From Escherichia coli O157:H7 (GTDB lineage Bacteria > Pseudomonadota > Gammaproteobacteria > Enterobacterales > Enterobacteriaceae), in the NCBI RefSeq assembly GCF_013167455.1, contig NZ_CP038328.1: 64,000 nt of DNA; one strand, 5' to 3'. This document shows positions 36,001-45,000 of the stretch, piece after piece; within the stretch, counting starts at the first letter, position 1, and every line of letters begins with the position of its first letter. Made by a program: the position numbers.

Positions 36001-39000
36001 CGCGCCAGCGTCGCATCCGACGTTACGCGCCAATGCGGCCTCCGGCACTAACGCAAAAGGGAACCTGATGGTTCCCTTTTTCACATCATTGACAATCGCC
36101 GCCAGTTCCAGGCAAACTCCCCGCTTTGTCGATTTCCTTCTGAAAAGACGTACGCGTTAAATCCTGCCAACGCACTGTAACCCTGAAACCAGAGAGATGA
36201 GACGGGGATACTCCTCGCCTTGCGCTGCATTCTGGAGTAATGCATGACTGCTGTAAGCCAAACCGAAACACGATCTTCTGCCAATTTTTCGCTCTTCCGC
36301 ATCGCTTTTGCGGTTTTTCTCACCTACATGACCGTAGGGTTGCCGTTGCCGGTTATCCCGTTGTTTGTTCATCATGATCTGGGCTATGGCAATACCATGG
36401 TCGGCATTGCCGTCGGCATTCAGTTTCTGGCTACGGTGCTGACGCGTGGCTATGCCGGGCGACTGGCCGATCAATATGGCGCAAAACGTTCGGCGCTTCA
36501 GGGGATGTTAGCTTGTGGTCTGGCTGGCGGCGCGTTGCTGCTGGCGGCGATTTTGCCTGTCTCCGCACCGTTCAAATTTGCCCTGTTGGTCATCGGGCGT
36601 TTGATTCTTGGGTTTGGTGAAAGCCAGTTACTGACAGGCGCTCTGACCTGGGGGTTAGGCATCGTAGGGCCAAAACACTCTGGCAAAGTGATGTCATGGA
36701 ATGGAATGGCGATTTACGGTGCCCTCGCTGTTGGTGCTCCGCTTGGCCTGTTGATTCATAGCCATTACGGTTTTGCCGCACTGGCGCTCACCACAATGGC
36801 ATTACCCTTACTGGCGTGGGCCTGTAACGGCACAGTGCGCAAAGTACCAGCCCTGGCGGGAGAACGTCCATCTCTGTGGAGCGTTGTCGGACTTATCTGG
36901 AAACCAGGGTTAGGTCTGGCACTACAAGGCGTTGGTTTTGCGGTTATCGGGACTTTCGTTTCGCTCTACTTTGCCAGCAAAGGATGGGCGATGGCGGGCT
37001 TTACTCTTACCGCGTTTGGCGGCGCATTTGTCGTGATGCGCGTCATGTTTGGCTGGATGCCGGACCGTTTTGGCGGCGTGAAAGTGGCGATTGTCTCTCT
37101 GCTTGTAGAAACGGTGGGCTTGTTGCTGCTCTGGCAAGCCCCAGGGGCGTGGGTCGCATTAGCGGGCGCGGCGTTAACCGGAGCCGGATGTTCGCTTATC
37201 TTTCCTGCGCTGGGCGTGGAGGTGGTTAAACGCGTCCCCTCACAAGTTCGCGGCACCGCACTGGGCGGTTACGCCGCGTTTCAGGATATCGCCCTCGGCG
37301 TCTCCGGGCCGCTTGCGGGAATGCTGGCGACCACGTTTGGTTACTCTTCGGTATTTCTTGCCGGGGCGATCTCTGCGGTGCTGGGAATTATTGTCACGAT
37401 ACTGTCGTTTCGTCGGGGTTAACGAACCAGCCAGACCAGCATCAGGATAATCGCGACTAACAGTATCCACAGCGCGGGACGCGTTGCCATATTTTGCAAC
37501 GTGTCCATCATCGGTGGAAAAGGATTAAGCAGCGGTTGCATATCACGCGGATCAATCCCTTTAACCCGCCGTTGATAAAGCTGATTAAGAATATCCTCGG
37601 CCTGGGCAGAAGAAAGCGATGATTGCGCAGAAAGGCCATATTTTTGCTGGATATATGCCGATAACGCCGCCAGTTCACTGGCATCTAAAGGTTGTTTTAG
37701 CGTCATTTGTAGTGATTCCAGCGTCGGCGTATTTTGCTGGCTTAGCGTCTGACGCGCCTGCAGCCAGGTCACCAGATGGTTAAACAGTTTCGCTGGAATT
37801 AACTCGCCATCTTTCACCCCGGAAAGTTCCAGCATCGATTGCCAGATCTGTTTGCTGGGCTCCCCCGTTGCCGCCGCAAGTTTGGTCACCAGCTGTTTGA
37901 GCGCATTGTGCTCCGCCGGTAATAGAGGACGATCGGTCGCCTCGCGCTGCTGCGGTTGCGGAATAACCATCTTCCCTTCCTGCAACAGGGTGAGAATGGT
38001 TTTTAATTGCTCCGGTGAGAGCTGATTCAGCGGCGTCTGACCAAAGTTATGACGGATATAATCCGTGACCGCCTGACGATTATTCCCCAGACGTAAATAC
38101 TCCCCTAATTGCGCTAAAAGCTGGCGGGCAGAATGGCTTTTTTGCGCGGCCAGCAGACGTTGCGCCAGATTATGCTCAGCGGCAGGGCAGTGACGCGAAA
38201 GCAGCGGTGAATCTCCCGACAGACCAATATCGTGCCTGATACCCGCCCACAGTTCTGCTCTTTGCTGTTGCGTCAGTGAGGTCACTTTCGTCATTAAGCT
38301 TTCCAGCGAAGTACGTTGCTGACTGGATAAAGGCTGATTGCCCGCGCCAGACGGCAGGTTATCTCCCTGACCTGGTGGTTGCCCAGGAGGAGGGCCGGAA
38401 ATAGGTTGTATCATTACGTATCCTTATACCTGAAATCTTCGCAAGTATGCCTGGCCGCGAGATTATGGCACACTTGTCCGGTTAACTCTCGTCTCATACA
38501 GGTAACACAAACGTGAAAATCCTTGTTGATGAAAATATGCCTTATGCCCGCGACTTATTTAGCCGTTTGGGTGAGGTGATCGCGGTTCCCGGGCGTCCAA
38601 TCCCCGTCGCTCAACTGGCAGACGCGGATGCGCTGATGGTGCGTTCGGTCACGAAAGTGAATGAATCTTTGCTGGCAGGAAAACCCATTAAATTTGTTGG
38701 CACTGCCACTGCGGGGACCGACCATGTCGATGAAGCATGGTTGAAGCAGGCGGGAATTGGTTTTTCCGCTGCACCTGGCTGTAATGCGATTGCGGTGGTG
38801 GAATATGTTTTCTCCTCCCTGCTGATGCTTGCCGAACGCGATGGATTTTCACTGCACGAGCGTACCGTGGGGATCGTAGGCGTTGGTAACGTTGGTCGGC
38901 GTTTACAGGCACGACTGGAAGCGTTAGGGATTAAAACCTTACTTTGCGATCCGCCTCGCGCCGACTGTGGGGATGAGGGTGATTTCCGCTCGCTGGATGA

Positions 39001-42000: not shown

Positions 42001-45000
42001 AAAACGATTATTCTCGCCCGTTTTGTGCCGATCGTCAGAACGTTCGCCCCGTTTGTTGCGGGAATGGGCCACATGTCGTACCGTCATTTCGCTGCTTATA
42101 ACGTGATCGGCGCACTGTTGTGGGTACTGCTTTTTACCTACGCAGGCTATTTCTTCGGTACAATCCCGATGGTTCAGGATAACCTTAAGCTGCTGATCGT
42201 CGGGATTATTGTGGTTTCTATTTTGCCGGGCGTCATCGAAATAATCCGTCACAAACGCGCTGCGGCACGCGCCGCAAAATAAAAAGTAACTCCGCGGTTC
42301 GACCACTTTTTTATCCAAAGTTTCGGGCTGTTATGTTTTAATGTGCAACATTCATGGTCTGTTGGGGGCAAAAATGGCATTATGCGTCCCCAAAGATAAA
42401 ACTGGCATCGAACCAGGTTCAGACAGAAAGGTCCCTAATGAGCTGGATTGAACGAATTAAAAGCAACATTACTCCCACCCGCAAGGCGAGCATTCCTGAA
42501 GGGGTGTGGACTAAGTGTGATAGCTGCGGTCAGGTTTTATACCGCGCTGAGCTGGAACGTAATCTTGAGGTCTGTCCGAAGTGTGACCATCACATGCGTA
42601 TGACAGCGCGTAATCGCCTGCATAGCCTGTTAGATGAAGGAAGCCTTGTGGAGCTGGGTAGCGAGCTTGAGCCGAAAGATGTGCTGAAGTTTCGTGACTC
42701 CAAGAAGTATAAAGACCGTCTGGCATCTGCGCAGAAAGAAACCGGCGAAAAAGATGCGCTGGTGGTGATGAAAGGCACTCTGTATGGAATGCCGGTTGTC
42801 GCTGCGGCATTCGAGTTCGCCTTTATGGGCGGTTCAATGGGGTCTGTTGTGGGTGCACGTTTCGTGCGTGCCGTTGAGCAGGCGCTGGAAGATAACTGCC
42901 CGCTGATCTGCTTCTCCGCCTCTGGTGGCGCACGTATGCAGGAAGCACTGATGTCGCTGATGCAGATGGCGAAAACCTCTGCGGCACTGGCAAAAATGCA
43001 GGAGCGCGGCTTGCCGTACATCTCCGTGCTGACCGACCCGACGATGGGCGGTGTTTCTGCAAGTTTCGCCATGCTGGGCGATCTCAACATCGCTGAACCG
43101 AAAGCGTTAATCGGCTTTGCCGGTCCGCGTGTTATCGAACAGACCGTTCGCGAAAAACTGCCGCCAGGATTCCAGCGCAGTGAATTCCTGATCGAGAAAG
43201 GCGCGATCGACATGATCGTCCGTCGTCCGGAAATGCGCCTGAAACTGGCGAGCATTCTGGCGAAGTTGATGAATCTGCCAGCGCCGAATCCTGAAGCGCC
43301 GCGTGAAGGCGTAGTGGTACCCCCGGTACCGGATCAGGAACCTGAGGCCTGATAACTGATAAGGGCAGGGCCACTGGCTCTGCCCTTTTGCTATTCTCAC
43401 CGTAACGAATCAGCGGATACCATGATTATCAAACGCACTCCTCAAGCCGCGTCGCCTCTGGCTTCGTGGCTTTCTTATCTGGAAAACCTGCACAGTAAAA
43501 CTATCGATCTCGGCCTTGAGCGCGTGAGCCAGGTCGCGGCGCGTCTTGGCGTTCTGAAACCAGCGCCATTTGTGTTTACCGTTGCGGGTACGAATGGCAA
43601 AGGCACCACCTGCCGTACGCTGGAGTCGATTCTGATGGCGGCAGGGTACAAAGTGGGCGTCTACAGTTCGCCTCATCTGGTGTGTTATACCGAGCGCGTA
43701 CGTGTGCAGGGTCAGGAATTGCCGGAATCGGCCCACACCGCCTCTTTTGCGGAGATTGAATCGGCACGCGGTGATATTTCCCTGACCTATTTCGAGTACG
43801 GTACGCTGTCGGCGTTGTGGCTGTTCAAACAGGCACAACTTGACGTGGTGATTCTGGAAGTAGGGCTGGGCGGTCGTCTGGACGCAACCAATATTGTCGA
43901 CGCCGATGTCGCGGTAGTAACCAGTATTGCGCTGGATCATACCGACTGGCTGGGGCCAGATCGCGAAAGTATTGGTCGCGAGAAAGCAGGCATCTTTCGC
44001 AGCGAAAAACCGGCAATTGTCGGTGAGCCGGAAATGCCTTCTACCATTGCTGATGTGGCGCAGGAAAAAGGTGCACTGTTACAACGTCGGGGCGTTGAGT
44101 GGAACTATTCCGTCACCGATCATGACTGGGCGTTTAGCGATGCTCACGGCACGCTGGAAAACCTGCCGTTGCCGCTTGTCCCGCAACCGAATGCCGCAAC
44201 GGCGCTGGCGGCACTGCGTGCCAGCGGGCTGGAGGTCAGTGAAAATGCCATTCGCGACGGGATTGCCAGCGCAATTTTGCCGGGACGTTTCCAGATTGTG
44301 AGCGAGTCGCCACGCGTTATTTTTGATGTCGCGCATAATCCACATGCGGCGGAATATCTCACCGGGCGTATGAAAACGCTACCGAAAAACGGGCGCGTGC
44401 TGGCGGTTATCGGTATGCTACATGATAAAGATATTGCCGGAACTCTGGCCTGGTTGAAAAGCGTGGTTGATGACTGGTATTGTGCGCCACTGGAAGGGCC
44501 GCGCGGTGCCACGGCAGAACAACTGCTTGAGCATTTGGGTAACGGCAAATCATTTGATAGCGTTGCGCAGGCATGGGATGCCGCAATGGCGGACGCTAAA
44601 GCGGAAGACACCGTGCTGGTGTGTGGTTCGTTCCACACGGTCGCACATGTCATGGAAGTGATTGACGCGAGGAGAAGCGGTGGCAAGTAAGTTTCAGAAT
44701 CGGTTAGTGGGCACGATCGTGCTGGTGGCGCTGGGGGTGATTGTACTTCCAGGGCTGCTGGACGGGCAGAAAAAACATTATCAGGATGAGTTTGCGGCTA
44801 TCCCGCTGGTGCCAAAAGCGGGCGATCGCGATGAGCCTGATATGATGCCAGCCGCCACCCAGGCGTTGCCGACGCAACCGCCGGAAGGCGCAGCGGAAGA
44901 GGTGCGGGCAGGTGATGCCGCAGCACCGTCGCTCGATCCGGCCACTATTGCAGCCAATAACACCGAGTTTGAACCGGAACCTGCACCGGTCGTCCCACCG

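Follow-up and report, generated by a model that had tools for sequence, protein, structure and literature searches.

Neighbouring genes share or overlap their boundary codons at several places, among them usg/truA, folC/dedD and the convergent pair yfcJ/flk, in a stretch of 64,000 nucleotides of Escherichia coli O157:H7 (RefSeq assembly GCF_013167455.1, contig NZ_CP038328.1), hereafter the window. With considerable confidence we interpret these junctions as short boundary overlaps in a compact core chromosome, which follow standard operon architecture and have mixed initiation at the downstream genes. Ribosomes that end translation of usg or folC would unfold the junction and be released beside the downstream start, and downstream initiation would combine two routes, namely re-initiation or facilitated initiation through these ribosomes, and de novo initiation driven by a Shine-Dalgarno (SD) sequence. 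The original prediction had proposed translational coupling for the same-strand pairs. This interpretation is partly supported: coupling in the pairs of the window is plausible, but partial and unproven.

Overlapping gene boundaries in the window

The window belongs to the core chromosome of E. coli O157:H7 and corresponds to about minute 52 of K-12, from fadIJ to ackA-pta. Its gene map was obtained by moving the RefSeq annotation of one O157 strain onto the window by sequence, followed by comparison with K-12 MG1655. The gene boundaries agree between both annotations, and all coding sequences from yfdC onward, the junction genes included, are intact open reading frames (ORFs). The 8 kb at the core of the finding match several E. 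coli O157:H7 chromosomes at 100% identity in a sequence search and are carried by 5,424 of 5,426 complete E. coli genomes.

All junctions named in the original prediction are present, with agreement between the sequence and the RefSeq annotations of O157 and K-12 MG1655. The convergent genes yfcJ and flk overlap by the 4 nt of TTAA (37419-37422), which belong to both stop codons. The remaining junctions lie on the plus strand. A TAATG motif, in which a single base is common to stop and start, joins usg and truA (40726-40730, shared A at 40728), fadI and fadJ (17141-17145, shared base 17143), mepA and yfcA (30792-30796, shared base 30794) and yfcA and epmC (31601-31605, shared base 31603), while hisQ and hisM overlap by GTGA (51404-51407) with GTG as the hisM start. 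The folC/dedD junction is an 11-nt dual-coding overlap (44680-44690, GTGGCAAGTAA), which is read as the terminal G-G-K-stop of folC and as M-A-S-K of dedD. Two ATGA overlaps between yfc fimbrial subunit genes, the first pair at 25194-25197 and the second at 25661-25664, were absent from the original prediction.

Where the annotation can be mapped one-to-one, overlaps occur at 8 of 38 same-strand junctions (21%), and a spacing of -1 or -4 is found in 7 of the 12 same-strand junctions within -15 to +15 nt (binomial P ~3-4e-6 under a uniform-spacing null). This enrichment is a well-known genome-wide pattern and no peculiarity of the region. Spacings of -4 and -1 are by far the commonest between co-directional genes across all prokaryotes, about 27% of prokaryotic genes take part in overlaps, and in E. 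coli about 15% of the ORF pairs in operons overlap and 820 gene pairs are spaced from -8 to +10 nt. The junctions are real short overlaps between the ends of neighbouring ORFs, their annotation is correct, and they represent standard bacterial operon architecture.

Start sites of the downstream genes

A revision of start sites leaves the overlaps of dedD, truA and hisM in place. The dedD GTG at 44680 (K-12 2431684) is confirmed by the N-terminal peptides MASKFQNR and ASKFQNR (2026 N-terminomics; PMC13245402 Table S1) and is also backed by retapamulin ribosome profiling (Ribo-RET) and INRI-seq; the same table confirms the GTG start of pdxB. For the genes of the region, the INRI-seq supplement lists only non-annotated initiation peaks. 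The next in-frame starts of truA and hisM occur only at codons 35 and 23, respectively. The truA ATG at 40728 is the first start codon of its ORF, and the alternative at codon 35 lies inside the conserved N-terminal region. Conservation was followed in a TruA scan with one genome per species, which yielded 80 loci from Escherichia to Pantoea, Erwinia and Mixta: the truA ATG is kept in 80 of 80 loci and the dedD GTG in 74 of 74. An in-frame TTG at 44662, 18 nt upstream, and a GTG at codon 10 were considered as dedD starts and rejected, because neither is a start codon in the 74-species consensus and the peptides fix the GTG at 44680. For dedD, truA and hisM the start sites may be regarded as secure.

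The overlaps of fadI/fadJ, mepA/yfcA and yfcA/epmC are given by annotation alone. In-frame alternatives lie near the annotated starts of fadJ (ATG, codon 3), yfcA (ATG, codon 9) and epmC (TTG, codon 10), none of these three genes has an entry in the N-terminomics or profiling tables searched, and yfcA has almost no SD (16S duplex energy -3.1 kcal/mol). In the profiling table, rows are absent for mepA, yfcA, yfcM, flk, yfcJ and fadJ. These points would fit an annotation artefact, in which some downstream starts are wrong and the true starts lie further downstream, where the overlap disappears. We consider such an artefact improbable. It is refuted for dedD by the N-terminal peptides and effectively excluded for truA and hisM by the distance to the next start, and it runs against both the conservation of the truA and dedD starts and the agreement of the O157 and K-12 annotations.

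The folC/dedD junction

The gene folC (43422-44690, plus strand) ends with TAA at 44688-44690, and dedD (44680-45342, plus strand) begins with a GTG 11 nt within it, in the sequence context AGGAGAAGCGGTGGCAAGTAA. All 74 loci in which both genes occur have the -11 overlap with GTG start and TAA stop. Within it, the sole variable column is the third base of the dedD Ala codon (G/A), which is at the same time the first base of the last folC codon (Glu/Lys). An SD core upstream of dedD (AGGAG, GGGAG or GGAGA) is likewise conserved across the loci.

In the window the SD of dedD is AGGAGA (44670-44675, plus strand), which forms two consecutive Arg codons of folC (nt 1249-1254). It is located 5 nt before the GTG and pairs with the 16S rRNA 3' end at -8.9 kcal/mol. 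In a study of AGR recoding, the replacement of this folC AGGAGA by CGUCGU was not obtainable and lowered the predicted strength of the ribosome-binding site (RBS) by 99%, whereas the RBS-preserving CGGCGA was viable (bioRxiv 10.1101/069385). The folC codons AGG-AGA are the ribosome-binding site of dedD. The same junction is described by Napolitano et al. 2016, who report downstream RBSs in the 3' end of upstream essential genes for secE/nusG, dnaT/dnaC and folC/dedD. The window carries the O157 copy of their folC/dedD sequence without any difference, and what is new beyond their work is only the invariance of the -11 GTG architecture in the sequences of 74 species, from Escherichia to Pantoea, Erwinia and Mixta.

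Published measurements (eLife 2017, Supplementary file 1) give a ribosome density of 145.4, an mRNA level of 159.5 and a translation efficiency (TE) of 0.91 for folC, and 61.8, 154.4 and 0.40, respectively, for dedD. The dedD/folC ratio of ribosome densities derived from this table is 0.43 at equal mRNA. The dedD start is recorded as detected by the cell-free INRI-seq assay (PMC13245402 Table S1). Its templates contain only 30 nt upstream of each start, and hence no folC translation takes place; dedD can therefore initiate by itself, and coupling is not required under these circumstances. Given the strong SD and the weak GTG codon, the SD route would be the dominant one for dedD.

The third codon positions in the last 15 nt of folC have an entropy of 0.61 bits, compared with 0.8-1.7 bits upstream, and those in the last 15 nt of usg have 0.52 bits, compared with 0.7-1.3 bits upstream (5 codons per bin). 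This reduction at synonymous sites is modest, and the codons are too few to claim selection beyond the SD.

An RNA 3' end recorded by Term-seq lies in folC at about 44656, 24 nt before the dedD GTG (K-12 2431708; Adams et al. 2021). The end is located 5 nt downstream of an imperfect hairpin (44607-44651) and has no U-tract. A product of processing or of exonuclease stalling seems more likely here than termination, because a transcript terminated at this site would leave folC without a stop codon.

The usg/truA junction

The genes usg (39715-40728, plus strand, stop TAA at 40726-40728) and truA (hisT; 40728-41540, plus strand) are joined by TGATG in 49 loci, by TAATG in 28 and by TAA-NN-ATG, with a 2-nt gap, in 3 of the 80 species. 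The spacing thus stays within -1/+2 in all loci. An SD-like AGGAG in usg (40712-40716, plus strand; codons Gln-Glu) is situated 11 nt before the truA ATG, which is longer than optimal, and has a duplex energy of -6.9 kcal/mol with the 16S 3' end. It is invariant in 77 loci, which were themselves anchored on a pattern containing AGGAG, and the 3 exceptions have it as well. In at least one other species, a local hairpin seen over the E. coli usg stop fails by eye.

For usg, the ribosome density is 206.7, the mRNA level 196.1 and the TE 1.05; for truA the values are 76.7, 198.2 and 0.39 (eLife 2017, Supplementary file 1). The truA/usg ratio of ribosome densities from this table is consequently 0.37, with equal mRNA. 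In Salmonella, pdxB-usg-truA-dedA are co-transcribed according to reverse-transcription PCR (RT-PCR). With an SD 11 nt away and an overlap of a single nucleotide, the share of re-initiation is probably larger for truA. The window has the genes of the hisT (truA) operon, pdxB-usg-truA-dedA, in identical order and shows no difference from it. This operon was reportedly described by Arps, Winkler and colleagues between 1985 and 1987.

Coupled or independent translation of the same-strand pairs

Coupling presupposes co-directional ORFs on one mRNA, and this arrangement is found for usg/truA and folC/dedD (mRNA 196/198 and 159/154, together with the RT-PCR from Salmonella). These pairs share an mRNA at equal levels, and the density ratios of 0.37 and 0.43 at equal mRNA show that coupling is not 1:1. 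Coupling efficiency peaks at spacings of -4 to +3 and declines progressively once an overlap exceeds 4 nt. Within this efficient range of about -4 to +3 lie usg/truA, fadI/fadJ, mepA/yfcA and yfcA/epmC at -1 and hisQ/hisM and the fimbrial pairs at -4, but not folC/dedD at -11. An SD within the upstream ORF is strong for dedD and for fadJ (-9.3 kcal/mol in 16S duplex energy, well spaced), present at 11 nt for truA and weak for yfcA; the role of the SD in coupling differs from pair to pair. We suggest that the -1 and -4 pairs would receive a larger share of re-initiation, with a stoichiometry that is not fixed at 1:1.

A stricter mode of coupling has to be weighed against mixed initiation. In strict termination-reinitiation, truA, dedD, hisM, fadJ, yfcA and epmC would depend for practically all of their translation on ribosomes that come straight from the upstream gene, and the overlaps would have been selected to fix the ratios of the products. 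Four of five native E. coli pairs with -4 spacing are strictly coupled in mRNA-normalised reporters, and short overlaps are enriched for subunits of heteromeric complexes. Both observations accord with this mode, the latter because fadI/fadJ and hisQ/hisM encode partners of one complex, and so do the narrow usg/truA spacing in 80 species and the downstream/upstream density ratios, which are below 1 in both measured pairs as re-initiation requires. However, fadI/fadJ and hisQ/hisM are the only such pairs: the annotated functions within usg/truA, folC/dedD and mepA/yfcA/epmC are unrelated, and no complex between their products is known. The dedD start is recorded by INRI-seq without folC translation, dedD requires its own strong SD, and its -11 overlap is predicted to couple weakly. 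Furthermore, relative translation is equally variable in overlapping and other pairs. Strict coupling throughout the window is accordingly rather unlikely.

Several observations weigh against the mixed initiation that we favour. Overlapping pairs vary genome-wide in their relative translation as much as non-overlapping ones do. The dedD start is recorded as recognised in vitro on a fragment with only 30 nt of folC, and the 11-nt overlap at this junction lies outside the range of most efficient coupling. Folds of positions -99 to +30 at six junctions are no more stable than shuffled sequences (z -1.5 to +0.5), and thus give no indication of a start hidden in structure that ribosomes from upstream would have to expose. 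A literature search found no premature-stop experiment that links downstream to upstream translation in the pairs of the window; the density ratios and the de novo initiation of dedD in INRI-seq are in line with partial dependence or none. Finally, purifying selection acting separately on each stop and start codon is enough to account for the conserved overlaps, and selection for coupling need not be invoked.

A further alternative is that the overlaps are neutral by-products, i.e., frozen accidents of compaction and of stop/start turnover, with independent initiation at each gene and a functionless overlap. All bases of the TAATG, GTGA and TTAA motifs lie in stop or start codons, and because every base does so, purifying selection on each gene preserves the motif. 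The positions that are free to change do drift, as in the TAA and TGA stops of usg (28 versus 49 loci) and in the four YTAR combinations that are all found at yfcJ/flk. The recorded de novo initiation of dedD, the absence of special RNA structure at the junctions in folds compared with shuffles, and the similar variation of relative translation in overlapping and non-overlapping pairs are compatible with this explanation as well. On the other hand, with these spacings a ribosome that terminates cannot avoid opening and covering the next start region, and experiments on further native E. coli pairs show strong dependence. Moreover, -4 and -1 outnumber the adjacent spacing values genome-wide, which is difficult to account for unless some advantage or a mutational bias is at work. 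We regard a purely neutral origin as possible but doubtful, and maintain mixed initiation as our interpretation of the same-strand pairs.

The convergent yfcJ/flk pair

The original prediction suggested antisense interference between the convergent transcripts of yfcJ, which encodes a major facilitator superfamily (MFS) transporter (36244-37422, plus strand), and flk, which encodes a flagellar regulator with a C-terminal membrane anchor (37419-38414, minus strand). The former is annotated as, and is, an intact ORF that ends with TAA at 37420-37422, and the flk stop TAA is the complement of 37419-37421. The resulting TTAA is the closest approach of two convergent ORFs without coding on each other's antisense.

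Of the 80 loci, 18 have the 4-nt overlap (Escherichia, Citrobacter, Salmonella, Yokenella, Pluralibacter and a few further isolates), in the forms TTAA, CTAA, TTAG and CTAG: each stop drifts between TAA and TAG, and the overlap persists. In 18 other loci (Enterobacter, Lelliottia, Klebsiella, Buttiauxella and others) a spacer of 31-105 nt separates the genes, and several of the spacers displayed (Enterobacter, Klebsiella, Buttiauxella and others) contain hairpins. There is a 4-nt gap in the single locus of Entomohabitans, 0.6-5 kb lie between the matches in 18 loci, and in the remaining loci of the 80 no yfcJ match was found within the locus. The overlap in Escherichia, Citrobacter and Salmonella may have replaced the intergenic spacer of their relatives, the direction of this change being deduced from the comparison.

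A consensus scan combined with folding detected no intrinsic terminator for yfcJ or flk at the junction, where there is no intergenic space. The class of bidirectional terminators, with a GC-rich hairpin and A- and U-tracts between the stops, is likewise not represented. Since no terminator separates the two genes, each transcript must run into the other gene. The hairpin nearest to the junction has 11 bp (37477-37506, arms GGACGCGTTGC / GCAACGTGTCC) and is located in the 3' part of flk, where 146 nt around it fold better than shuffles (z -2.2). It was rejected as a yfcJ/flk terminator, for it has no U-tract on either strand and is Escherichia-specific, with a partial counterpart in E. albertii and none in Citrobacter or Salmonella.

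The flk-yfcJ pair is included in the published convergent "excludome" of E. coli MG1655 (ExcludonFinder, 2025), which lists transcript overlaps occurring in at least 50% of 58 RNA-seq data sets. The transcripts of flk and yfcJ overlap accordingly, with the 4-nt ORF overlap and the lack of a junction terminator. In comparison with the convergent excludons of that list, the ORFs of flk-yfcJ themselves overlap by their stop codons, while a functional excludon is defined by reciprocal expression and RNase III dependence. Two other convergent pairs of the window occur in the same list of overlapping transcripts, rpnB-yfcH (54036/53988, 47-nt gap) and yfcO-smrB (27026/27197, 170-nt gap).

A region of Rho-dependent termination lies about 77 nt into yfcJ (about 36321 in the window, codon ~26; K-12 2440043), with a Rho score of 5.8 and P 4e-12 (Adams et al. 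2021). It could represent premature termination or attenuation of yfcJ, and it may limit the transcription that reaches flk. A pattern scan close to this region reports a small hairpin with a T-run (36297-36318). This candidate for an intrinsic terminator was dismissed, as the hairpin (36297-36313) does not appear in the minimum-energy structure and the stability of the region does not exceed that of shuffles.

Mutual antagonism of yfcJ and flk, by polymerase collision or by RNase III cleavage of a duplex, would be a functional antisense or excludon regulation. The ORF overlap without a terminator and the published overlap of the transcripts agree with it. Yet no effect on expression is reported in the literature, and both genes fall below the read-depth threshold of the profiling and dimethyl sulphate (DMS) table, which may reflect low expression and rare collisions. 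Much of the yfcJ transcription may moreover end early at the Rho region. The arrangement is lineage-specific: in many relatives flk is separated from yfcJ by a spacer or by inserted genes, or no yfcJ is detected beside it, which argues against a conserved regulatory role. We therefore hold such regulation to be scarcely probable, and the regulatory effect of read-through between yfcJ and flk is probably small.

A more far-reaching reading takes the spacerless yfcJ/flk arrangement as a functional switch by convergent transcription and, separately, the Term-seq end 24 nt upstream of dedD as processing of the folC/dedD mRNA. In the Escherichia-Citrobacter-Salmonella group, yfcJ read-through gated by the Rho region would lower the flagellar checkpoint protein Flk. 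At folC/dedD, the processing would separate dedD from the folC mRNA and tune a quasi-essential division protein. This reading appears very improbable.

The 3' end of flk, and with it the C-terminus of the protein, differs markedly between the window and the locus of another E. coli strain (TTAACTCAATAACCAG... versus TTAACGAACCAGCCAG...), and TTAA is kept. The gene appears to be unusually variable within E. coli.

Genomic surroundings

The genes that accompany the junctions are pdxB (38513-39649, GTG start), dedA (41623-42282) and accD (42438-43352). The longest ORF of accD begins at an ATG at 42354 (332 aa), compared with the start at 42438 (304 aa) annotated in O157 and K-12.

The intergenic region between dedD and cvpA (45343-45873) contains an array of REP/BIME-like units with a period of 91 nt, of which about 25-30 copies occur per E. 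coli genome. Three units exceed the gathering score of the Rfam family naRNA4 (RF02564; 45405-45475, 45496-45566 and 45587-45657), with weaker matches alongside. Compared with O157 strain CDC#03-98, the array of the window is longer by one 91-nt unit, and the K-12 spacer measures only 258 nt. In a Rfam scan of 35500-46500 these REP-like naRNA4 units were the only matches, and all of them lie outside the junctions.

Positions 1-9600 are occupied by a prophage remnant (integrase intS, tail/ejection-type genes and a recombinase) that adjoins tRNA-Arg (9735-9809). The closest of the complete E. coli genomes matches it at only 99.6%, and gene coordinates taken from strain CDC#03-98 cannot be carried over to this segment.

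Among the sequences compared, CACSKA010000009.1 is labelled "Chryseobacterium sp. 18061" and carries a yfcJ-flk-pdxB-usg-truA-folC-dedD locus of the Enterobacteriaceae type. Its TruA is 90% identical to that of E. coli, and the assembly is probably contaminated or mislabelled.

Relation to known systems and significance

Overlaps of -1 and -4 and their link to translational coupling have been textbook knowledge since the trp and gal operons. The pairs of the window have the same motifs as the -1 (TAATG/TGATG) and -4 (NTGA) overlaps known from termination-reinitiation (Huber et al. 2019, 2023; Brown & Wade 2025), and like those systems they sit in operons, mostly with an SD-like motif in the upstream ORF. 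They differ in that any coupling of usg/truA is partial, as is evident from its density ratio, and in that complex partners are confined to fadI/fadJ and hisQ/hisM. The RBS embedded at folC/dedD, the GTG start of dedD, the hisT operon and the transcript overlap of flk-yfcJ are already in the literature.

Nothing in the window departs from well-described bacterial gene organisation, and the observation is ordinary. It has little weight as a discovery and is of practical use in genome recoding and annotation. Translation signals of the next gene are written into the 3' ends of usg and folC, and synonymous changes at these sites are therefore not neutral, as AGR recoding found for folC.

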